Below are positions 54,401-63,290 of a stretch of DNA of 64,000 nucleotides, piece after piece. The notes beneath the pieces were generated by a model. It was given only the letters and a program-made list of their open reading frames with translations. It did no database searches and was not told the DNA's origin. How positions within the stretch are numbered: the stretch's first letter is position 1; every line of letters starts with the position of its first letter. This DNA comes from Candidatus Micrarchaeaceae archaeon (lineage in GTDB: Bacteria > Chloroflexota > Dormibacteria > Dormibacterales > Dormibacteraceae). The stretch is taken from positions 19,446 through 83,445 of the forward strand of contig DATLRQ010000163.1 of assembly GCA_035534555.1 (NCBI GenBank). Reading direction: 5' to 3'. The position numbers were made by a program, and so were the translations under genes.

Positions 54401-55912
54401 CTACCGCGGAGGACGTGGTTCGAGTCCACGGCGGCCCACCACTCCTGATATAACGCGAACCGGCGGCGCTGGCAGCCGATAGGTCGGAAAGATTTCACTC
54501 CGGGATTTGACTCTGATCTCGCTCACCAATTGCTGCATCAGCGCCTTGCGTTGCGAAGGCATGCCATTGTCCATCGCGTCGGCGATCGCGCCGATTACTG
54601 AGCGAAGGTCGCTGGCGGTCGGCGGCGTGATCGATATGTCGGCCAGTTCGTCCTGAAGCGTCTCCCGCTGCGTCCGCAGCTCGGCGAGACGCTGCTCCAA
54701 TTCCTCCATCCGGCCGGCCAACCGCCTGGCTGTAAGTGAGCCGGACTCGAAGGCGGCAAAGTAACGCTGCAGCGCTTGCTCGGCCTTGTCGATTTTCGCC
54801 TCAAGACTTCGCAGGTCCGATCGCATGCTTGGGAGCGCGGTATTCGCCTTCTTCCTGGCACCGGCGACTGCTCGGTCGATGAGGTCGCTGTCGGAATACG
54901 TCGTCTGCATGGAGGCTAGGACGGCACGTTCGAAGGCTTCCGCGGGAAGCCGGTCGGCTTGGCAGCCATGCGGGCCATAGCGATTGCGCGAGAAGCAGGT
55001 GTAGTACCGGTACGGTCCGCTGCGCCCATGAGCCACCGTACCCAGGAGGCGGTTCCCGCATTTGCCGCAGCGGACAACCCCGCTTAGCAAATAATCGCTG
55101 GTGTTGCTGCGGCGTTTCCACGCCGCATCATGCCGGGCAGCGAGCGTCGTCTGCGCGGCATCGAAGGCGTCCTGGCTGACGAGGGCGACGTGCGGAGCTT
55201 GATGCGATGCGCCGCGGAACTCAATCCGTCCGACGTGGACCGGATTGCGGAGGATGTCAAAGACGGTGACTGCGCTCCATGGTCGGCCGGCTCGTGTCTG
55301 ATGGCCATGGCTGTTCAGCCAGTTGGCAACAGCCCTGGTTCCCAATTTCTTGGTGACGTAGAGGTCGAAGATCGCTCGCACCGTCGCCACTTCACACTCG
55401 TCGGGTTCCAGCATCGCAACGGCTGGGTTATAGCGATAGCCGTATGGATTGGGGCCACCGAGCCATCCGCCCGCAGCTGCCTTGCGCTCCATGCCGGCGA
55501 TCACGCGGTCGACCAGAGTGGCGCGTTCGAACTCAGCAAAGACGCCAAGCATCTGGACCATCATTCGGCCCGCAGGCGTACCCGTGTCGAAGGGCTCCGT
55601 TGCCGAGCGGAAAACAGCATGTGAGTGGTCGAGCTCTTCGAGGATTTGTGCCAATCCACGCACCGAGCGCGATAGACGATCGACTCGATAGACGAGCAGA
55701 AGGTCGAAGCGTTCGGCGCGGGCGTCGGCGAGAGCGCGCTGTAGCTCGGGCCTCTCCAGGGTGCTGCCGGTCATCCGATCGGTGTAGCGGCGCGTGAGCT
55801 CCCAGCCGTCTTGACTAGCGATGTAGGCAGCAAGGCGTGTCTCCTGCGCCTCCAGCGAGTACGGCTGGTGCTCCTCGTCGGTCGATATGCGGGTGTAGGT
55901 GGCGACTCTCAC
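54401..55912 (-). CDS. large serine recombinase (integrase type)
   Basis: 503 aa with a GTG start. Resolvase catalytic domain VATYTRISTDEE...LLVYRVDRLSRS, a recombinase domain, a Zn-ribbon CGKCGNRL...YYTC and a coiled coil. The ORF tail runs into the tRNA-like fragment. Confidence 0.9.
   Translation of the reverse strand: MRVATYTRISTDEEHQPYSLEAQETRLAAYIASQDGWELTRRYTDRMTGSTLERPELQRALADARAERFDLLLVYRVDRLSRSVRGLAQILEELDHSHAVFRSATEPFDTGTPAGRMMVQMLGVFAEFERATLVDRVIAGMERKAAAGGWLGGPNPYGYRYNPAVAMLEPDECEVATVRAIFDLYVTKKLGTRAVANWLNSHGHQTRAGRPWSAVTVFDILRNPVHVGRIEFRGASHQAPHVALVSQDAFDAAQTTLAARHDAAWKRRSNTSDYLLSGVVRCGKCGNRLLGTVAHGRSGPYRYYTCFSRNRYGPHGCQADRLPAEAFERAVLASMQTTYSDSDLIDRAVAGARKKANTALPSMRSDLRSLEAKIDKAEQALQRYFAAFESGSLTARRLAGRMEELEQRLAELRTQRETLQDELADISITPPTASDLRSVIGAIADAMDNGMPSQRKALMQQLVSEIRVKSRSEIFPTYRLPAPPVRVISGVVGRRGLEPRPPR
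54414..54441 (+). other. tRNA 3'-end-like fragment (T-arm + acceptor 3' strand + CCA); no 5' half present
   Basis: CGTGG-TTCGAGT-CCACG-GCGGCCC-A-CCA. The matching 5' acceptor strand GGGCCGC is not found upstream. Confidence 0.5.
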
Positions 55913-56973
55913 TTCGACCTCTTCTCCTTCAAGGCATTGCGCTTCCTCGGCAGGCGCAGCGTCGCATAGCGATCGCTCCGATACTCCTCAACCCATTGCC
56001 GACTGCTGCGCCAGGTGCCATCGGCCGCTCGAATTGCCTTCAGCCGTGAACGTTGCGCGGCATTACGTAGAGCTAGAACAGACAGATCCTTTGTTGCCAA
56101 GGCGTCCAGCGGTACCAGCTTCGCAGGCCCTGCCACCGCAGGCAAGACGAAGCGACTGAGGTTGTCGAGGACCGCGCGCGCGATGATCTCGCCTAGCGGT
56201 CCTGGATCACCGCGGTCGGCACGATTCAAGGCTTCGAGGTAGCGATCTCGAAGACGCTTCTGAATGATCGCCGGCGGGTAACCAAGCCGGACCAACAGGA
56301 GGTTCATGAGCAAGCGGCCGACGCGGCCGTTGCCGTCGATAAAGGGGTGGATGCGTTCGAACGCGGCATGGCGCGCTGCGAGTGCCTCCGCGACGGGCGA
56401 CTCGCGAGGCAAGCTGGCGACGCCATCTACCCAGTCGCGAACCAGCGCCGGAACATCTGGGTGGCTCGGTGGCTTCATCCCGTGCTTGAAGGCGTGGATG
56501 TCATGCCGGCGCCAGTTGCCCGGACTCTCGTCTTCGGAGGCGTCTGGATGCGGAGCGACCTCCCAGACGGGGGTCAGTGCCAGTCGGTGAACCTGGCGGA
56601 CTTCGGTGAGCGTGAGCAATTTGCCGCTGGTCCATGGGCCAGAACTCAGTGCTTGGCTGTACACCCACTGAGCTGCGCCCGCGTAGCCGCTGACCTCCAG
56701 GTAGTCCTTGAGTTCCTTGCTGCCGACCGCCTTGCCTTCGCGGAGAAGTGCCTCAACTTCTCGCAGGACCAAGGTGTTGCCCTCCAGGGCGGTTGAGCTG
56801 TGGGCCTCGTGGTACCAGATGTCGGTCCATATGCCGTCGGCCTCGTCGGGGGACGGCAACCCGCCGAGGCGAGTTTTCAGCTCCTCGATCATGAAGGCGA
56901 GTCGTGCGTGCACCGCTTCCCGGCTGGGTCGGCCATGCGGAGCCGCGGAGGCAGTTCTTGTTAGGTTGCTCAT
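55909..56973 (-). CDS. Fic-family protein (class II, N-terminal inhibitory motif present)
   Basis: Fic motif HPFIDGNGRVGRLL and an inhibitory-helix-like STALEG. Its stop overlaps the recombinase start by 4 nt. Confidence 0.9.
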   Translation of the reverse strand: MSNLTRTASAAPHGRPSREAVHARLAFMIEELKTRLGGLPSPDEADGIWTDIWYHEAHSSTALEGNTLVLREVEALLREGKAVGSKELKDYLEVSGYAGAAQWVYSQALSSGPWTSGKLLTLTEVRQVHRLALTPVWEVAPHPDASEDESPGNWRRHDIHAFKHGMKPPSHPDVPALVRDWVDGVASLPRESPVAEALAARHAAFERIHPFIDGNGRVGRLLMNLLLVRLGYPPAIIQKRLRDRYLEALNRADRGDPGPLGEIIARAVLDNLSRFVLPAVAGPAKLVPLDALATKDLSVLALRNAAQRSRLKAIRAADGTWRSSRQWVEEYRSDRYATLRLPRKRNALKEKRSK

Positions 56974-57387: not shown

Positions 57388-57840
57388 TCACGCCCCCGCT
57401 CCTCCGCCAGAGCGCCATAGCCACCACTCAGGCTTGCCGATGCTCTCCTCGATCCGGCGCTGAGTCCGTGCCAGGCCGGGCATCGAGTCGAATGCGCGCC
57501 TGACCTTGTCCGCCCCGCCCAACCAGATCGCAGCCAACGGTCCCGCGGCGCCGACCTGGTCGCTGGTCGTCGTCCAGAAGCGGCAGCATTCCCTATCCGG
57601 ATTCGCGACCTCGCGAAGAAGGTGCCCGAGCTGCTCTTCCCGCTGCCGAGTCGGAACTACCCAGAGGATCTGGTTAGCGGAAGCGTGCGGTCGATCGACG
57701 AAGTAGCGGACGTAGGACTGGAGCTTGGCTCGAAGGCGTCGTGGCTGCTCGGTGCCGCGGTCCCACTCGAGTTGAAGGAGTAGTTCGCGGTCTTTCGTAA
57801 AAGCATCTACGAAGCCCCGCCACACCTCCCGCTCCGCCAT
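57388..57840 (-). pseudogene. 5'-truncated replication-relaxation (Replic_Relax) family gene fragment
   Basis: The 150-aa ORF carries the family's central LQLEWDRGTE motif and C-terminal half. It lacks the ~100-aa N-terminal wHTH portion. Confidence 0.5.
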
Positions 57841-57928: not shown

Positions 57929-58171
57929 ATGAGGCGCACCACGCTGATGCTTCCGGACGACCTGGCTCGCGTGGTTGAGGCCGAGCGCAGGCGCCGAGAT
58001 ATCTCCACCGCGGAATTGGTTAGGCTCGCGCTGCGCAGTTACCTGGGCCTGACCGGGAACCGGCCCCGGCGGGTACCGTTCGCAGCGCTGGGGCGAAGTG
58101 GACGCACCGACACGTCTGAGAAGGTCGAGGAGATTCTCGAGCGCGAGTGGGGGCGACGCCGCGACGATTAG
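57929..58171 (+). CDS. vapB: ribbon-helix-helix antitoxin (VapB-type)
   Basis: 80 aa. MRRTTLMLPDDLARVVEAERRRRDISTAELVRLALRSYL is an RHH fold signature. Lies directly upstream of the PIN gene. Confidence 0.75.
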   Translation: MRRTTLMLPDDLARVVEAERRRRDISTAELVRLALRSYLGLTGNRPRRVPFAALGRSGRTDTSEKVEEILEREWGRRRDD

Positions 58172-58621
58172 CCTGGCGATCGTCGATACCGGGCCCCTGT
58201 ACGCAGCGGTCGATGCGTCGGACGCCAATCACCAGCGGGCGCTGGCGGTGCTGCAGGATCGGTCGGTGCGTCTGTTGGTGCCGGCGCTGGTGGTCGCTGA
58301 AGCGACCTACCTGGTCGGAACCAGGCTTGGTCCGCCGGCCGAAGCCGGCTTCCTGCGAGGGCTTCGAGAGTTCGACGTGATGAGCCCGGCTGGCGAGGAC
58401 TGGTCACGCATGGCCGAACTGGTGGAACGGTACGGGGATTTCCCGCTCGGGGGAACCGACGCCTCGATTGTGGCGCTGGCCGAGCGCATCGGTACGGACG
58501 TCGTGGTCAGTTTTGACCGGCGTCACCTGGGAGTTGTGCGGTCGCGAGCGGGACAAGCCTTCAAGTTGATCCCCAGCTGACCATCGGAGTTGCACGCCAC
58601 GACAGAATTCGAAAAGTATCT
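58081..58621 (+). repeat. copy A (intact) of a ~0.5-kb direct repeat covering the vapB 3' end and vapC
   Basis: Aligns by eye with 62544-63034, for example GCAGCGGTCGATG.GTCGGACGCCAATCACCA and GGTACGGACGTCGTGGTCAGTTTTGACCGGCGTCAC. Confidence 0.8.
58173..58580 (+). CDS. vapC: PIN-domain toxin (VapC-type)
   Basis: Acidic PIN residues in IVDTGPL, VVAEATY, GGTDASIVALA and VSFDRRH. The start is uncertain: GTG 58098 would overlap vapB by 74 nt, whereas CTG 58173 follows the vapB stop directly. Confidence 0.75.
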   Translation: MAIVDTGPLYAAVDASDANHQRALAVLQDRSVRLLVPALVVAEATYLVGTRLGPPAEAGFLRGLREFDVMSPAGEDWSRMAELVERYGDFPLGGTDASIVALAERIGTDVVVSFDRRHLGVVRSRAGQAFKLIPS

Positions 58622-58691
58622 TCGCGGCGGCGGCTGCGGGCGGGCGGGTAATTCGAGACCACGGTCGGGCGGGCTGCACGCACGCCTGGGA

Positions 58692-60644
58692 TCACCACTG
58701 TCTGTCGGCTGAAAGCTTGAGCAGCCGCTTCATGGCGTCGGCCGCGGCAACCACTGCCGACGGCTCGGCACCTTGGTCGGCCGCAGCGGTTTCGCGCGTC
58801 CGGATGATGCCTGCTCGCCGAGCGATCAATGCGCCGAGAGCTGCGGCCAGGACCCCGGGCGGAAGCTGTGTCAGCTCGGGTTCGCCAGCAATGCGCTGCC
58901 ACGCCGCCAGGCAGCGGGCGACCAGAGGCAGGCCGAACTTGGGCAGGTCCACCTGCCACAGAAGCGCCCCGACCGGGTCGAGCGCTGCCCTCGGCGCGGG
59001 GGCACCTTCGTAGATTGCTTCTGCCGGCAGAATTGCCCATCGGGGAAGTCGTCCGTCCCAGGCGTCGAGCACGGGCAGGACTTCATCGACCGCAGGCCGG
59101 CCCGCATCCAGCCGCCATCGCAGCGTGAATGGGAAAGATCGCCGCCCAGCCACCACGCGCCCGGTCGTGGAGTGAAGCATGCCGGCGACCGGCTCAGCGG
59201 TCCGGAAGGTGCTCTCGGTCGGGAGCGCCCCGATCGGAATCCCGACCGCGCGTAAGGGCGCCTCGGCGCCATAGATGCGGTAGAGGGCCCGCAGCGGCGA
59301 GTGGACTCCTGCCCGTTTCCGCGGCCAGGAATCGCCCGCGGTGACAGCCTCCCAGAAGTCACCGCCGAGCTTGTCGCCTGTGCGAAGGATCCGGCGCCGC
59401 TGCTGCGCAAGTTCCTCCAAGTGTTTGGCGTGATCCACCGCCTCAGTCGGCGCAGCCTTGAGGGCGACATGATGGACAGCACGGGCCCGACCTGCCAGGG
59501 CGCCTGAAGACGCAATAGATGGGGCGGCAGGTTCAGGTTTCGGCGCCGGCTCCGACGCACGCGGTGGCGAGCCGGCCGGCTGAATGTCCTGCACTGGCCG
59601 GCCCATGCAGGCCCGGCACCCCAGCCGATCCTTGCCGGCGATCAGAGGCGTCGGCTCTCCGCACGCAGGGCAGCGAAGCGGCGCAAAGCTCGCCGTGGGG
59701 AGCCACCAGACCAGCTCAAGCGCATACCCGCGGTCGCCCCGCCGCACCGTTACCGGCATGTACATGGCGGGCGCCCAGATGAGGTGCAGCCGCACAGGCC
59801 GGATCTCGAAGCGGGCTTGGAACTTGTCTTCGATCTCGCGCAGGCGGCGGGCGCGCTCCGCCCTCGTCGCCTGGGCCTGCGCGTCAAACATAGCCTGGCG
59901 TTCAGGCTGCGCTCCTTGTCGCCGTTCCGCGATCGATTCCAGGGCCGCGGCATAGAAGGCCTCCACCAACGCCCGCTCGTCTAGCAGGAGAGCAGCCGAA
60001 TGCTTGCCCAGGGTTTCGAGTCGTACGGCTGCGCGCTCCTCCAGGCGCGCGCTGGCCGCGAGCAGCGCGACATCAAAGCTGGGCTCAAGGGCAGGGTGCC
60101 CGGGCTTGCCGTCAAGACGGGGAGAAGTCCGCAGCCGACGCTCGAGGTCCGCTGGCAGTGGCAGCCCAGTACGCGCGTCGACCCATAGCTCCTCGAGTTC
60201 GTGGAAGTGGTCGTTGAGGCGATACGTGACCTGGACACCCACGCGCAACACCGGCACGTACCTGGGCACGGCTTCTCCGGAGGCGTCCAGGCGCCCGTGG
60301 TCGACTCCGATCTGATCGCGGGCGGCTGCCACCAGGCTGCCGGTCGCCGGCGCGGCCTTGGCCGACCAGGCCAGCCAGAGCGTGCCCGCGTCGCCCTGCG
60401 CCAGTACCGCGGCGGCGGCGGAGTCGAGTAGCGGATGTCCCGAGATCATGAGCTGAGCGCCGTCGTCGCGGGCCACGTCGGGGTCGGCTGTGATGGCGAT
60501 CTCCTCCGGGACGCCGAACCTCTCCTGCAGCGTACGCGGCAATAACATGAGCACCTTGTCGCCGCCGTCCTCGAGCAGGGCGCCCTCCTGCTCGGCGTAG
60601 CGCATCCAGAACGTTATCGCCGCCTCGCGAACGCGGGAGGTCAT
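58692..60644 (-). CDS. hypothetical 650-aa protein with a central zinc ribbon (CPACG-x14-CRAC); partner of the SNF2 ATPase
   Basis: Coherent long ORF whose ATG overlaps the SNF2 stop (ATGA at 60641-60644). No family motif recognised by eye. Confidence 0.7.
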   Translation of the reverse strand: MTSRVREAAITFWMRYAEQEGALLEDGGDKVLMLLPRTLQERFGVPEEIAITADPDVARDDGAQLMISGHPLLDSAAAAVLAQGDAGTLWLAWSAKAAPATGSLVAAARDQIGVDHGRLDASGEAVPRYVPVLRVGVQVTYRLNDHFHELEELWVDARTGLPLPADLERRLRTSPRLDGKPGHPALEPSFDVALLAASARLEERAAVRLETLGKHSAALLLDERALVEAFYAAALESIAERRQGAQPERQAMFDAQAQATRAERARRLREIEDKFQARFEIRPVRLHLIWAPAMYMPVTVRRGDRGYALELVWWLPTASFAPLRCPACGEPTPLIAGKDRLGCRACMGRPVQDIQPAGSPPRASEPAPKPEPAAPSIASSGALAGRARAVHHVALKAAPTEAVDHAKHLEELAQQRRRILRTGDKLGGDFWEAVTAGDSWPRKRAGVHSPLRALYRIYGAEAPLRAVGIPIGALPTESTFRTAEPVAGMLHSTTGRVVAGRRSFPFTLRWRLDAGRPAVDEVLPVLDAWDGRLPRWAILPAEAIYEGAPAPRAALDPVGALLWQVDLPKFGLPLVARCLAAWQRIAGEPELTQLPPGVLAAALGALIARRAGIIRTRETAAADQGAEPSAVVAAADAMKRLLKLSADRQW

Positions 60645-62389
60645 CGGGCTTCCGTTGCCTCGCCGACCAGCGCATCTGTCTGGGCTCGGCTCTCGAGGTA
60701 GCCCTCTCGGGCGCGAGCAAGATCGTCCCCAAGCACCTCGAGGCGTCTGGCGAACTCGTCGTCGTGGGCGCTCTCGATGTGCGCCATGAAGACGGAGTGC
60801 TCGAAGTCGAACTCGTCGTCGATCCGCCCCAGTATCATGTCCAGCTCTCCCACCACCAGCTCAAAGAGGTTGATCCGCGCCTCCAGGACGTGCAGGATCC
60901 GCTCCTCGATGGTGCCCATGGAGACGAGGTTGTAGAGCTGGACCACGTGCTCCTGACCGATGCGGTGAATGCGGCCGAGTCGCTGTTCGATCCGCATCGG
61001 GTTCCAGGGCAGGTCGTAGTTGACCATGACGTGGCAGAACTGGAGGTTTCGTCCTTCTCCGCCCGCGTCGCTGCTGAACAGCACCGGCAGCTCGGCTTCG
61101 AAATCCCGGATCGCCGCCTCCTTTTGCTGGCGGCTCAGGCTGCCGTGGTAGACCGCATGGGGAAGTCCTTGTTGGGCTGCGAGATTGGAAAGGAAGTCGA
61201 GGGTTTGCCGGAACGCGGTGAACACGATCACTTTCTCGCCGGCCGCCAGATGCCGGCTGAGCAGGCCACCCAGGGCCCGTGCCTTCTCGGTCATCGTCAC
61301 AGCAGCCGCCTTCGTGGCCAACTCCTTCCAGCCCACAGTTTCCAGTGCGGTAGCAAGCGCCTGCGGGCTCGAGCCCGCCATTCGCTGCACCCCACGGAGG
61401 GCGAGCCTCTCCGCCGGCAGTGCCGCCCGGCCCCAAGCCCTTACCTGCTCAGATGTAAGCCGGTAGAGCTCCGCCTCCGCAGCGCCGGGTGCCACTCGAA
61501 AGCTCTCCGCCAGCCGGCGGGGCAGCATCATTGCAAGCTCGCTCCGCCGGTGCCGGATCATCACCTCCCGCACCCGGGCCTGGAGCGCCATCAAGTTGCT
61601 GACCGGCTCGACCCCGTGCAGCGAGCGGTGGCGCTTGTGGAACTCCTGTGGCGACCCCAGGTGGCCTGGGCGGATCAAGCTGACGAGTTGGAACAGGTCC
61701 TCCAGCCGGTTCTCCACAGGAGTGGCGGTAAGCAAGAGCAGATAGCGGGTGCGCAGTTCGCGCACCAAAGTCGCCGCCGCGCTGCGCGGATTCTTCAGGT
61801 GGTGCGCCTCGTCAACGATGACGAGGTCCCAGGCTCCGGCGGTGAGAGTCTCTCGGAGCGGAGACCGGCGCGCCGCGGCCAAGGATGCAACGACAACCGG
61901 ATTCTCGCCCGACCAGAACTCCGGCTCCCACGTTCCCCCCTTCAGCAGCAACGAGGGCAGAGCGAACTTGCGATCAAGCTCTTCCTGCCATTGCTCCAGC
62001 AGTCCGGTGGGGGCGAGGATCAAGGACTTCTCCGCAAGCCCGCGCAATCGAAGCTCACTCAGCACCAGGGCCGCCTCGATGGTCTTGCCAAGGCCAACCT
62101 CATCGGCCAGGATCGCCCGGCCGCGCATGTACCGGAGCGCGCGTTCCGCAGCTTGGAGCTGGTACCCAAAGGGTTCGAAGCGCAGCCTGGGCCGAGAGAT
62201 CAGGGTCTCGAAGCCCGGTCGTGCCCACACACCGAGCGCCTGGTCGACGAGGCTCGAGTCCTCTTCAGAAACCGGAACACCTTCTTGAAGGCGGAGCAGT
62301 AGGTTCTGGTAGCTCTTGGCCGCGCTGGGTGGCCCGCTCGATCCGGCTCCCCTGTCCACCACGTACCCGCTCGGTACCTCCTCGGTCAA
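60641..62389 (-). CDS. compact SNF2-family helicase/ATPase (RapA/HepA-like core only)
   Basis: 582 aa with a TTG start. Motifs ADEVGLGKT (I), DEAHHLKN (II), LLLTATPVENRLEDLF (III), GGEGRNLQ (V) and EQRLGRIHRIGQ (VI). Confidence 0.9.
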   Translation of the reverse strand: MTEEVPSGYVVDRGAGSSGPPSAAKSYQNLLLRLQEGVPVSEEDSSLVDQALGVWARPGFETLISRPRLRFEPFGYQLQAAERALRYMRGRAILADEVGLGKTIEAALVLSELRLRGLAEKSLILAPTGLLEQWQEELDRKFALPSLLLKGGTWEPEFWSGENPVVVASLAAARRSPLRETLTAGAWDLVIVDEAHHLKNPRSAAATLVRELRTRYLLLLTATPVENRLEDLFQLVSLIRPGHLGSPQEFHKRHRSLHGVEPVSNLMALQARVREVMIRHRRSELAMMLPRRLAESFRVAPGAAEAELYRLTSEQVRAWGRAALPAERLALRGVQRMAGSSPQALATALETVGWKELATKAAAVTMTEKARALGGLLSRHLAAGEKVIVFTAFRQTLDFLSNLAAQQGLPHAVYHGSLSRQQKEAAIRDFEAELPVLFSSDAGGEGRNLQFCHVMVNYDLPWNPMRIEQRLGRIHRIGQEHVVQLYNLVSMGTIEERILHVLEARINLFELVVGELDMILGRIDDEFDFEHSVFMAHIESAHDDEFARRLEVLGDDLARAREGYLESRAQTDALVGEATEAR

Positions 62390-62543: not shown

Positions 62544-63034
62544 CACAGCGCTGGAGTGAAGCGGTCGTACCGCCAGGTCTGATAAGCGACCAGATTCTCG
62601 AACGCGAGGTGGGGGGCGGGGCCGCGACGAGCAGCCCGACCATCGCGATACCAGCTCCTGCATGCAGCGGTCGATGTGTCGGACGCCAATCACCAACGGT
62701 CGCTGGTAGTGCTGCAGGATCGGTCGGTGCGCCTGTTGGGCCGGCGCCGACGCGCTGGTGGTCACTGGAGCGACCTAGCTGGTCGGAACCGGTCTTGATT
62801 CGCCGGCCGAAGCAGGCTTCATACGATGGCTTCGAGAGTTCGACGTGGTGAGCCCGTCTGGCGAGGGACTGGTCACGCATGGCCGAACTGGAGGAACGGT
62901 GCGGGGACTTCCCGCTGGGGGGCCACCGATGCCTCGATCGTGGCGCTGCTCCAGCGCGTCGGTACGGACGTCGTGGTCAGTTTTGACCGGCGTCACAAGC
63001 CTTCAAGCTGATCATCAGAGTTCGAAAAGTATCT
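62544..63034 (+). pseudogene. decayed second copy of the vapB 3' end and vapC (copy B of the direct repeat)
   Basis: Homologous to 58081-58621 but carries a TAC-to-TAG nonsense change at 62776-62778, a 6-bp insertion, a ~28-bp deletion near the 3' end and frame breaks. The ORF track shows only fragments here. Confidence 0.7.
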
Positions 63035-63290
63035 ACGACACCCCGCTGGTTTTCGAAGGCAGGACTCTTGATCCCCTTCGCCACATCCTTGCATCCGCCT
63101 CGCGGGCCTTTCTGGCCCTCCTGCGAGGTCAGATCGAAGGGCGCATAGAGCCCGACTGCCAGGGGTCCGTCCTTCCAGGAGGGGTTCGAAACAACCCGCT
63201 GCAGAAGGTCGCTCGGATGGTAAAGGATCTACGAGCAAGCCGGAAGGGCGAGTTTACAAGGCGATCTGCGAGCCACGGATCATGAGGTCG

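Follow-up and report, generated by a model that had tools for sequence, protein, structure and literature searches.

A two-gene cassette encoding a probable split form of a RapA-type SNF2 remodeller

Within the 64,000-nucleotide stretch of contig DATLRQ010000163.1 analysed here (the window), an SNF2 ATPase gene adjoins a gene for a 650-aa zinc-ribbon protein, and the locus raises the question of what kind of machine these two proteins might form and in what role it is carried. Both open reading frames of the original prediction were found on the minus strand at the coordinates it had given: gene 1, encoding the SNF2 ATPase (60641..62389; 582 aa from a TTG start), and gene 2, encoding the partner (58692..60644), in which a RapA-type accessory module precedes a zinc ribbon, a linker and two domains, one NTF2-like and the other TFIIB-like. 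Gene callers place the SNF2 start at a GTG at position 62362, nine codons downstream, and the protein is probably 573 aa long rather than 582 aa. The genes meet in an ATGA stop/start overlap on the minus strand (60641..60644), read as ...GCC CGA TGA overlapping ATG ACC TCC, and the junction is equally tight in related loci. The proposed co-translation of the two proteins was borne out as that of an obligate, translationally coupled pair: an SNF2 gene lies directly upstream of the partner gene in 92 of 93 loci, with an overlap that is usually 4 bp. In a relative at 24% identity (P0074), too, an upstream ORF overlaps the gene, and the tail of this ORF is similar to the SNF2 C-tail.

Gene 1 encodes lobes 1A/1B/2A/2B and a helical tail of ~100 aa only. 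Its Pfam matches were SNF2-rel_dom (3.4e-35) and Helicase_C (1.1e-24), with no others and with no Tudor N-domain found in its product. All of the SNF2 motifs quoted in the original prediction are present in the translation, among them (all on the minus strand) motif I, the Walker A sequence DEVGLGKT (aa 96-103; 62081..62104), motif II, DEAHH (aa 193-197; 61799..61813), and motif VI, QRLGRIHRIGQ (aa 469-479; 60953..60985). Residue conservation was counted over 72 paired SNF2 homologues, and the catalytic residues K102, E194 and R476 were invariant in 72/72, suggesting that the motor is active. Assignment of this ATPase to the RapA/BrxHII/DrmD branch is supported by its top PADLOC matches (BrxHI|BrxHII, 250 bits, and DrmD, 221 bits), by its NCBIfam matches, and by its nearest PDB sequences, SsoRad54 (4e-40) and RapA (4e-39); the motor is 31% identical to RapA 157-609 by BLASTP. 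The NCBIfam scores fall far under the equivalog cutoffs for DrmD (232 vs 610 and 224 vs 950), and the RapA score was 187 bits against a cutoff of 576.

The AF2 model of the full partner (pLDDT 88.7), in which a folded N-module (aa 1-347), a disordered linker (350-398) and a folded C-module (400-650) are evident, agrees with the four-part layout that had been proposed. The accompanying claim that none of these parts could be assigned to a known family was contradicted by structure-based comparison, in which the N-module corresponds to the post-motor domains of RapA and the C-terminus to a TFIIB-like cyclin/HTH repeat. When modelled by itself (pLDDT 94.2, pTM 0.77), the N-module matched only RapA chains in a Foldseek search of the PDB (E 1.8e-7 to 4.6e-7, probability 1.0, 303-310 columns), the next match having E>1, with low TM-scores of 0.31-0.35 (query-normalised) and an rmsd of ~11 Å upon superposition.

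The first part of this module (aa 1-115; 60300..60644, minus strand) is an alpha/beta domain whose RapA counterpart, ~716-830, lies where the Spacer region ends. BLASTP aligned partner residues 10-106 with RapA 716-816 at 32% identity over 103 aa (pairwise E=1e-5), and hhalign recovered the same register (E=0.002, probability 13.5%). With the RapA_C HMM, 63 of 213 family members outscored all 426 controls, always in an identical register and with scores of 11 bits or less; Pfam gave no PF12137 (RapA_C) match to the partner at E<=0.01. Motifs common to both proteins are T-x-D..VA, H70-P71 (RapA H781-P782) and G84-D85-x-G87 (RapA G794-D795-T-G797). The Spacer-end domain has been classed as REase-like and is catalytically degenerate in RapA/BrxHII (PMC12839542), and in the partner it probably serves as a surface docking onto the motor. 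The second part (aa 116-314; 59703..60299, minus strand) was modelled as an antiparallel sheet into which a long helical hairpin (H190-244/H247-274) is inserted between strands, matches the fold of the RapA C-terminal domain by Foldseek, and has invariant residues that include H116-G117, R134, R208, R241, E263, R266 and R267. That fold was recovered solely in RapA/BrxHII helicases (PMC12839542), whose published post-motor domain description agrees with the topology of the partner model. The proposed homology of the partner to the RapA accessory domains thus rests on predicted structure, with marginal support from sequence. As the SNF2 protein and the partner, when concatenated, are co-linear with full-length RapA, with the gene junction falling at RapA ~705-716, we consider the pair a RapA/BrxHII-type Swi2/Snf2 protein divided by gene fission, a motor very probably split into an ATPase and an accessory-domain protein.

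The remainder of the partner extends beyond RapA, which in the co-linearity comparison ends at the strand preceding the zinc ribbon. This ribbon, CPAC-x14-CRAC (aa 325-346; 59607..59672, minus strand), was confirmed where it had been predicted, with its four cysteines (325, 328, 343 and 346) invariant in 54-67 homologues. It had prompted an analogy with DrmB (DUF1998), in which the partner would be a zinc-ribbon sensor of nucleic acids and its SNF2 companion a counterpart of DrmD. In favour of this, the partner and DrmB each have a zinc-binding element of four cysteines, and the SNF2 falls on the DrmD branch. The analogy was contradicted: at E<=0.01 a Pfam scan assigned the partner to no family, DUF1998 included, no PADLOC model matched the partner, the fold search returned only RapA, and the ribbon follows a RapA-type C-terminal domain as a short appendage. 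We regard it as highly improbable.

After the ribbon comes a disordered Pro-rich linker (aa 348-399; 59448..59603, minus strand; pLDDT <50, 19% Pro), with a mean pairwise identity of 21%. The domain that follows (aa 400-525; 59070..59447, minus strand), modelled by AF2 as helices and a curved beta-sheet, is NTF2-like by fold, with weak Foldseek matches (E 0.5-1.7) and a mean pairwise identity of 35%. The C-terminal residues 557-650 (58695..58976, minus strand) resemble a single TFIIB-type cyclin repeat: Foldseek matched TFIIB/Brf2 in the PDB (probability ~1.0, E ~0.09-1, rmsd ~2.6-3.4 Å over 83-97 columns for most matches) and viral TFIIBs in BFVD, and a profile search of PDB sequences found TFIIB at E=0.07. 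The pattern RT..AAADxGA(D/E)..V..A...L within this region appears helix-turn-helix-like, and the predicted ligand of the region is DNA or a target protein. The C-module diverges faster than the N-module (35-37% vs 43-53% identity) and is missing from one sub-clade, as would be expected of a specificity or targeting module.

The TFIIB ribbon binds RNA polymerase (RNAP) near the RNA exit channel, and in TFIIB the order of elements is zinc ribbon, linker and cyclin repeat. The partner has its ribbon, linker and cyclin repeat in this order, with fold matches that agree, and the site at which RapA is reported to bind RNAP is likewise the RNA exit channel. Together with the RapA-related fold and sequence and the co-linear architecture, these observations would fit a pair that does the work of RapA, as a housekeeping-type RNAP recycling factor for HelD-type phyla, in which the zinc ribbon and TFIIB-like repeat replace the Tudor N-domain in docking to RNAP or DNA and the motor frees stalled or post-termination RNAP. 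However, the RapA flap-tip patch L216/V217/L220/I540/I541 is replaced by R-Q/E-D/E-D/R/A-R-T across the 72 homologues, the RapA salt-bridge residues R502, R524, E527 and R545 are unconserved among them, the Tudor N-domain is missing, and the RapA score is far from its cutoff. The dispensability of the C-module in one sub-clade, the literature assignment of RNAP recycling in Actinobacteria to HelD, and a sporadic distribution with near-identical copies in unrelated contexts, unlike that of a core transcription factor, also argue against this role, which we consider unlikely.

The partner family comprises 766 clusters at 50% identity, mostly in Actinomycetota, and a pattern-limited scan of 185,579 species genomes gave 119 matches, a sporadic distribution; hosts of the cassette belong to Actinomycetota, Chloroflexota and related phyla. 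In ~87 neighbourhoods, the only conserved genes were the two themselves, the next neighbour family occurring in 7 of ~87 loci, so that the pair's description as a stand-alone module held. This result bears on whether the pair could be a remnant or satellite of DISARM class 1, type 3 BREX or ARMADA that works only with partners encoded elsewhere, as might be suggested by the SNF2's best PADLOC/NCBIfam matches (BrxHII and DrmD) and by the reported abundance of ARMADA and related systems in Actinomycetota. Yet no methyltransferase, YprA/DrmA helicase, DUF1998, PLD nuclease or BrxC gene was conserved within +/-10 kb of these ~87 loci, the unit common to genomes is exactly two genes, and the DrmD scores are low; the fission and the ZnR/TFIIB-like additions are, furthermore, missing from the BrxHII domains listed in PMC12839542. 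A satellite of this kind is therefore quite improbable.

The neighbourhood survey agreed with the expectation that the pair sits on mobile or variable loci, for its contexts are variable and rich in TA and RM genes and it behaves as a mobile cassette. Locus pairs with SNF2 proteins at least 95% identical had a mean of 12% of flank families in common (flank genes being called with a simple GC3-based caller), and 6 of 12 had none. The DNA block common to genomes, ~3.84 kb, consists of both genes and the upstream region and ends at the partner stop codon. Neighbour genes across loci include PIN, Uma2, Phd, AbiEii, NYN, type I MTase and JetA, a Wadjet-like cluster adjoins the Streptomyces copy, and ordinary metabolic genes are frequent. 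The pair is thus a self-contained, uncharacterised two-gene cassette that moves horizontally between actinobacterial genomes.

In the window itself, Pfam confirmed the genes predicted nearby as those of a serine recombinase, Fic, RHH and PIN. The recombinase, which is large, and Fic occupy the same low-GC segment as the pair, as does a weak Replic_Relax relic. The intact and decayed VapBC copies said to bracket it were recovered as a ~500-bp, ~90%-identical direct repeat on the plus strand. Its left arm (58126..58624) holds the intact vapC, with PIN recognised by Pfam, and downstream sequence (79-93% identity in the repeat search), and its right arm (62587..63037) holds the decayed, frameshifted copy, seen as fragmented ORFs; indels between the arms are indicated by their spacing, which ranges from 4442 to 4470 nt. 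This setting, and transposases or recombinases near two other loci (L001 and L002), could indicate that the pair serves a mobile element, remodelling host nucleoid or transcription complexes for island integration, excision or maintenance, or acting as an anti-defence factor. Such service is improbable, since no recombinase or other MGE gene travels with the cassette, the pair is absent from sequenced phage and plasmid collections, and most contexts lack MGE hallmarks.

A gene-fission RapA/BrxHII-type remodeller spreading as an accessory cassette is, overall, the explanation that we favour and judge reasonably probable. We hypothesize, with similar moderate confidence, that the two proteins act as a heterodimeric remodeller. 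Gene 1 would supply a bare ATP-driven DNA-translocating motor, and gene 2, translated from the same mRNA by way of the ATGA overlap and hence expected in matched amounts, would provide in trans what RapA has in cis, namely an alpha/beta domain of degenerate REase-like type and a C-terminal domain that bears a coiled coil. Docking of the partner's N-terminal alpha/beta domain on the motor would rebuild a RapA-like enzyme, which the zinc ribbon, flexible linker, NTF2-like domain and TFIIB-like repeat might tether to a specific DNA site or DNA-bound complex; heterodimer formation and target tethering by the C-module are both conjectural steps of this model. ATP hydrolysis would then remodel or evict the tethered complex, as RapA does with post-termination RNA polymerase. 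As the pair is self-sufficient and its ~3.8-kb block has spread horizontally into variable regions rich in TA and restriction genes, an accessory, conflict-related role (defence-like or MGE-control) appears most likely, rather than a core housekeeping one. Defence in particular is plausible but tentative; no nuclease or other effector domain is recognisable in the pair.

Among known proteins, TFIIB/Brf has a cyclin repeat that superposes on the partner's C-terminal ~90 aa, and its ribbon-linker-cyclin order is echoed there. The partner differs in having only one repeat (E ~0.1), an NTF2-like domain in between and a ribbon joined to a RapA-type domain, and nothing indicates that the arrangement as a whole shares its ancestry with TFIIB. 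HelD, an ATPase that bears long helical arms and, in these same phyla, strips RNAP of nucleic acids (literature), may be a functional neighbour of the pair, but it is a single protein of unrelated SF1 fold, reported as the RNAP-recycling factor of Firmicutes and Actinobacteria rather than as a mobile cassette. The defence-associated RapA-like SNF2 helicases BrxHII (type 3 BREX), DrmD (DISARM class 1) and ArmA (ARMADA) belong to the same branch as the pair's SNF2, are common in Actinomycetota (literature), and likewise contain REase-like and C-terminal alpha+beta domains of the RapA type (PMC12839542). In contrast to the split, Tudor-less pair, each of them is one chain of ~900-1000 aa that has a Tudor domain at its N-terminus, and they always work alongside a PglX-like methyltransferase together with either BrxC or a YprA/DrmA helicase, whereas the pair has no conserved partner genes, bears the ZnR/NTF2/TFIIB-like additions and scores far under their equivalog cutoffs. 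The closest comparison is with RapA (HepA; NF003426; PF00176 + PF00271 + PF12137 RapA_C; PDB 6BOG, 8SPG, 7M8E), the RNA-polymerase-associated Swi2/Snf2 ATPase of E. coli, with which the pair has the same order past the N-domain: SNF2 lobes, helical region, alpha/beta domain, and a C-terminal sheet into which a long helical hairpin is inserted. Relative to RapA, the pair is divided into two genes, has lost the tandem Tudor N-domain and the flap-tip-helix-binding patch, has other residues in place of the salt-bridge ones, and carries as additions a further beta-hairpin, the zinc ribbon, the Pro-rich linker, and the NTF2-like and TFIIB-like parts. RapA is reported mainly from Proteobacteria, whereas the pair is a mobile, sporadic cassette found mainly in Actinomycetota.

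Both open reading frames of the original prediction were present on the minus strand, a 582-aa SNF2 ATPase gene (60641-62389) and a 650-aa partner gene (58692-60644), and the stop codon of the first was seen to overlap the start codon of the second as ATGA (60641-60644, minus strand). In public contigs, gene callers place the SNF2 start nine codons downstream, giving a protein of 573 aa. The context claimed for this pair also proved accurate: Pfam searches identified a large serine recombinase (54401-55912, minus strand), an overlapping Fic gene (55909-56973, minus strand) and an RHH/PIN (VapBC) pair, and a second, decayed VapBC copy was present, with the two genes bracketed by the intact and decayed copies. 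Around the pair lies a direct repeat of ~500 bp that is ~90% identical, with indels (58126-58624 and 62587-63037), and that contains vapC and about 40 nt downstream of it, intact in one copy and frameshifted in the other. Recombination between the two halves of the repeat would remove the cassette, and the layout could be a trace of its capture.

The 54-58 kb and 62-64 kb segments of the window were lower in GC than their surroundings. The Fic and serine recombinase genes, at the edge of a low-GC segment, overlap by 4 bp (GTGA) and look translationally coupled, as an unusual operon. A 150-aa ORF (57388-57840, minus strand) matched the C-terminal part of Replic_Relax below threshold (E=5.8e-4, 20.4 bits relative to a cutoff of 25.3); it may be what is left of a plasmid or ICE gene, and would then fit a mobile-element origin of the 54-58 kb segment. 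No tRNA gene was found in the window, and scans for sigma-70 promoters and intrinsic terminators, which are uninformative for this organism, were empty. NCBI labels an identical partner protein 'Candidatus Micrarchaeaceae archaeon' and a related contig 'Candidatus Micrarchaeia archaeon'. GC content along the contig is 62-71%, its genes include bacterial types (TgpA-like transglutaminase, VapBC, ParE/Phd and Fic), and the closest homologues of the partner come from Dormibacteria, Chloroflexota and Actinomycetota. An error of binning or taxonomy probably explains the archaeal label.

All of the SNF2 helicase motifs that had been quoted for the 582-aa protein were found in its translation, with core motifs I-VI intact. 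Pfam listed SNF2-rel_dom, Helicase_C, ResIII and DEAD for this protein and nothing else. The motor is predicted to be active because its catalytic residues K102, E194 and R476 were invariant in all 72 of the 72 paired homologues. Only ~75 residues precede the motor, the first ~25 of them unconserved, and the Pfam scan detected no Tudor N-domain in the protein. The SNF2 protein was 31% identical to residues 157-609 of RapA, the RNAP-associated Swi2/Snf2 ATPase of E. coli. Among defence and annotation models its best matches were to BrxHI|BrxHII (250 bits), DrmD (221-232 bits), DpdE and RapA (187 bits), all of them confined to the motor and far under the curated cutoffs: RapA model NF003426 scored 187.2 bits against a cutoff of 576 with only the motor covered, and DrmD models NF038317 and NF038318 scored 232.4 against 610 and 224.3 against 950, respectively. 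The PADLOC matches of the SNF2 protein corresponded to generic helicase-core regions of several systems.

The partner had no match in Pfam, PADLOC, NCBIfam or PHROGs, and comparison with PDB sequences, using either the single sequence or a family profile, returned only compositional helical matches and a weak match to TFIIB. A full-length AlphaFold2 model (54-sequence alignment, mean pLDDT 88.7) bore out the predicted four-part layout, with folded regions at residues 1-347 and 400-650 and a disordered Pro-rich linker at 350-398. The zinc ribbon CPAC-x14-CRAC was located at 59607-59672 as described, and its four cysteines were invariant across 54-67 homologues. When the full-length model was compared to the PDB with Foldseek, the 50 matches listed were TFIIB-like and NTF2-like ones at the C-terminus, and RapA was absent among them. 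With residues 1-350 (the N-module) modelled alone (pLDDT 94.2, pTM 0.77), the same search returned three E. coli RapA entries (E 1.8e-7 to 4.6e-7, probability 1.00, 303-310 columns), beyond which the next match had E > 1. The RapA match surfaced only when these residues were both modelled and searched alone, and a domain-by-domain fold search works better for two-module proteins with a disordered linker. As this query did not include the ATPase, the match falls on the non-motor domains of RapA. The Foldseek TM-scores between the N-module and RapA were low (0.31-0.35, rmsd ~11 Å), which probably reflects a differing arrangement of domains.

In the N-module model, an alpha/beta domain is followed by an antiparallel sheet, between whose strands a pair of long helices (190-244 and 247-274) is inserted. 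RapA terminates just after the strand following this helical hairpin, and the partner goes on with an extra beta-hairpin, then the zinc ribbon, linker and C-terminal module. By predicted fold, the Spacer (REase-like) and the C-terminal domain with its inserted hairpin are found on a separate polypeptide, the partner, and the SNF2 protein and partner residues 1-350 concatenate co-linearly with the whole of RapA, placing the gene boundary at ~RapA 705-716. All of these structural inferences derive from AlphaFold2 models. The partner had been considered unassignable to any known family, a view that no longer holds for a protein whose N-module is predicted to fold like RapA and whose C-module appears TFIIB-like.

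Sequence comparisons gave a register for this relationship. BLASTP aligned partner residues 10-106 with RapA 716-816 (32% identity, pairwise E = 1e-5), superimposing the family-invariant H70-P71 on RapA H781-P782 and G84-D85-x-G87 on RapA G794-D795-T-G797. A profile-profile comparison with an alignment of the RapA C-region followed the BLASTP register at E = 0.002, with a probability of only 13.5%. With an HMM built from RapA_C only, 63 of 213 family members outscored every one of 426 control sequences (reversed or shuffled), each time in the same register and never above 11 bits, and the partner did not reach Pfam PF12137 (RapA_C) at E<=0.01. The RapA sequence signal is thus weak but consistent, and the main support for the relationship comes from the predicted fold.

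The C-module of the partner, residues 400-650, comprised an NTF2-like region (400-523, Foldseek) and a region (~557-642) that superposed on one cyclin repeat of TFIIB/Brf in the Foldseek search of the PDB (probability ~1.0, E ~0.1, rmsd mostly ~2.6-3.4 Å). The resemblance to TFIIB was seen again in a viral structure library and in a PDB sequence-profile search (E = 0.07). Mean pairwise identity within the partner family was 43-53% in the N-module, 35-37% in the C-module and 21% in the linker. This Pro/Ala-rich linker ranged from about 50 to over 150 residues (seen at loci L065, L070 and L076), and long linkers split BLAST matches and make partners look like short forms. An apparently swapped C-terminal domain in family members P0011 and P0038 (BLAST coverage ~52%) was rejected, as the same C-module stood behind a longer linker, and contig ends or long linkers accounted for several partners that merely looked short. 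Supposed alternative C-terminal effectors in members of odd length were out-of-frame Gly/Arg-rich translations or truncated fusions. Genuine short partners, ending just past the zinc ribbon, were found at L005, in P0053, P0055 and others, and in clusters of ~350-380 aa; the C-module is dispensable in one sub-clade.

A word-indexed search with the partner returned 74 clusters, none informatively named, and an exhaustive profile search returned 766 representatives (50% identity, E ≤ 1e-3), with 267 at E ≤ 1e-30. SNF2 of this clade lay directly upstream of the partner in 92 of 93 loci, the exception starting at a contig edge. The two were separate genes in the window and in 92/92 informative loci, and a fused SNF2-partner form was not found among the best 150 of the 766 representatives. 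At locus L090 only the C-terminal part of the partner was matched, with the SNF2 match 1,425 nt upstream of it, and in a relative of 24% identity the preceding ORF overlaps by 4 bp and has a tail resembling the SNF2 C-terminus. SNF2 was the better conserved of the two proteins (55-72% identity vs 32-58% for the partner). At least 119 of 185,579 species genomes carried the family, a lower bound because the scan used one peptide pattern. The carriers were mainly Actinomycetota (Mycobacterium, including M. ostraviense and M. innocens, Streptomyces, Frankia, Cellulomonas, Solirubrobacterales, Acidimicrobiales and Nitriliruptoraceae), and also Chloroflexota, Acidobacteria and Dormibacterota-like MAGs.

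We clustered the neighbour genes within ±10 kb of the pair, calling flank genes with a simple GC3-based caller. Only the two genes themselves were conserved; the next neighbour family occurred in 7 of ~87 loci, which ruled out a conserved third gene or larger system among these loci. The most recurrent neighbour domains (PIN, Uma2, Phd, AbiEii, NYN, type I methyltransferase and JetA) were each found in <10% of loci and were mixed with ordinary metabolic genes. Loci whose SNF2 proteins were ≥95% identical had a mean of 12% of flank families in common, and 6 of 12 such pairs had none; DNA homology between these copies formed a block of about 3.84 kb with sharp limits, beginning about 110-250 nt upstream of the SNF2 gene and ending at the partner stop codon. 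Alignments of the cassette boundaries showed neither terminal inverted repeats nor att-like sites, and tblastn found no match to the partner in phage and plasmid collections. Because the flanks differ, the two-gene block is shared and no third gene is conserved, the pair is a self-contained cassette that is relocated or exchanged, and is not fixed in a core context. The proposal of a stand-alone two-gene module on variable loci was thereby well supported.

Upstream of the pair, mycobacterial copies (L038, L043, L047, L049, L050, L040, L075 and L077) carry the element GAATCGCATCCGCCTCATTCGTCACA in nearly invariant form, and behind it come a GT-rich stretch and a ribosome-binding site, GGGAGG. 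This element is ~110 nt upstream of the SNF2 start (for example L038:8170-8330), forms the 5' limit of the common cassette where contexts differ, and could be a promoter, an operator or the remnant of a recombination site. At the 3' border, homology between differing contexts stops within a few bases of the TAG. A small hairpin, TGGTGG-TAGCCCGGGACA-CCACCA (L038:11885-11910 and equivalents), holds the mycobacterial partner stop codon in its loop, and translated boundary alignment showed several mycobacterial copies directly downstream of the 3' end of an apparent VapC-like gene. In Streptomyces phaeolivaceus (L001; CP045096, 6099061-6121160), the copy, at 6107403-6111160, is flanked on one side by a serine recombinase/DDE transposase region and on the other by a DUF2397-DUF2398-SbcC-type cluster. 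This cluster looks Wadjet-like, since a surveyed DUF2397 neighbour protein matches PADLOC JetA models, and the setting looks like a defence island.

These observations suggest how the pair might act. The N-terminal alpha/beta domain, the partner segment most similar to RapA, would dock on the motor and rebuild a RapA-like enzyme, with translational coupling favouring matched amounts of motor and partner. The C-module, which evolves faster, is dispensable and is attached by a flexible linker, would direct this enzyme to particular DNA or to a complex bound to DNA, and ATP-driven translocation would then remodel or evict that complex in a RapA-like manner. RapA itself opens the RNAP clamp to release post-termination complexes; the target here need not be RNAP, because the RapA docking residues have been lost. 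Cassette behaviour and neighbourhoods favour an accessory, conflict-related role, and the presence of no effector domain, together with no PADLOC-DB v2.0.0 model matched by the pair as a system, argues for caution. We put forward a defence role as a hypothesis. The way in which nearly identical copies occupy unrelated, TA-rich contexts and share exactly two genes makes the pair a reasonable candidate for phage and plasmid challenge in actinobacterial hosts whose defence systems are under-explored. A more specific proposal, which we consider unlikely, is an undescribed, self-sufficient and nuclease-free two-protein system for immunity or control of mobile genetic elements, in which the TFIIB-like zinc ribbon/cyclin module guides the split motor to strip transcription or replication complexes off invading DNA. 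If true, it would represent defence by eviction of polymerases or nucleoproteins and not by cleavage or abortive infection, and would offer a natural two-piece RapA with experimentally separable motor and regulatory domains.

The analysis provides a predicted fold and evolutionary origin for ~766 clusters (50% identity) that lacked informative annotation in the databases searched, from Mycobacterium, Streptomyces, Frankia, many uncultured Actinomycetota, Chloroflexota and Dormibacterota-like bacteria. RapA and HelD have been reported as mutually exclusive (Proteobacteria vs Firmicutes/Actinobacteria), which a mobile RapA-like module across Actinomycetota would qualify.

In comparing the pair with known systems, we found no PADLOC-DB v2.0.0 model that matched the partner and no described or candidate system that was complete, and the literature searched contained no description of a SNF2 and zinc-ribbon pair, a split RapA, or a ZnR/NTF2/TFIIB-like extension. 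TFIIB has an N-terminal zinc ribbon and two cyclin repeats that bind TBP and DNA, whereas the partner has one cyclin-like repeat; it resembles TFIIB-like proteins but is not shown by this to be one of them. An analogy to DrmB (DUF1998) had also been raised and was not upheld, as the partner contained zero Pfam or PADLOC families and the N-module fold search led to RapA only. RapA-like helicases of DISARM, BREX and ARMADA always occur with a PglX-like methyltransferase plus a BrxC ATPase or YprA-like helicase (PMC12839542 among sources). DrmA (YprA-like), DrmB (DUF1998) and DrmMI were absent around the pair in the window, and neither these nor PglX-like, BrxC or YprA-like proteins recurred as neighbours in the ~87 loci; the pair is not part of DISARM, BREX or ARMADA.

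RapA is a single polypeptide of ~970 aa, in contrast to the two overlapping genes seen here. It binds core RNAP, which stimulates its ATPase, and its tandem Tudor-like N-domain, which the SNF2 protein does not have, exerts auto-inhibition on the ATPase and grips the beta' zinc-binding domain. RapA contacts the flap-tip helix of RNAP through a hydrophobic patch (L216/V217/L220/L229/I540/I541) and forms salt bridges to the alpha and beta subunits (R502/R524/E527/R545; PMC8501970). In the 72 homologues the patch positions were replaced (L216 by R/Q, V217 by E/D, L220 by E/D, L229 by I/V/L, I540 by R in 72/72 and I541 by A/R/T), and the salt-bridge positions were not conserved. Because the Tudor N-domain, flap-tip patch and salt-bridge residues are missing, the pair was ruled out as a RapA orthologue. 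BrxHII, DrmD and ArmA, the RapA-like helicases of type 3 BREX, DISARM and ARMADA, belong to the same branch as this SNF2 protein, but are unsplit and reside within multi-gene systems; BrxHII and ArmA combine Tudor, motor, inactive REase and C-terminal alpha+beta domains in one protein, whereas here these domains are split and the Tudor is missing. The predicted folds make it very probable that the pair is a gene-fission variant of a RapA/BrxHII-type Swi2/Snf2 protein. The RapA/BrxHII architecture would then exist as a natural two-gene fission, and the split pair would be a tractable system for studying the function of the post-motor domains in RapA, BrxHII, DrmD and ArmA.
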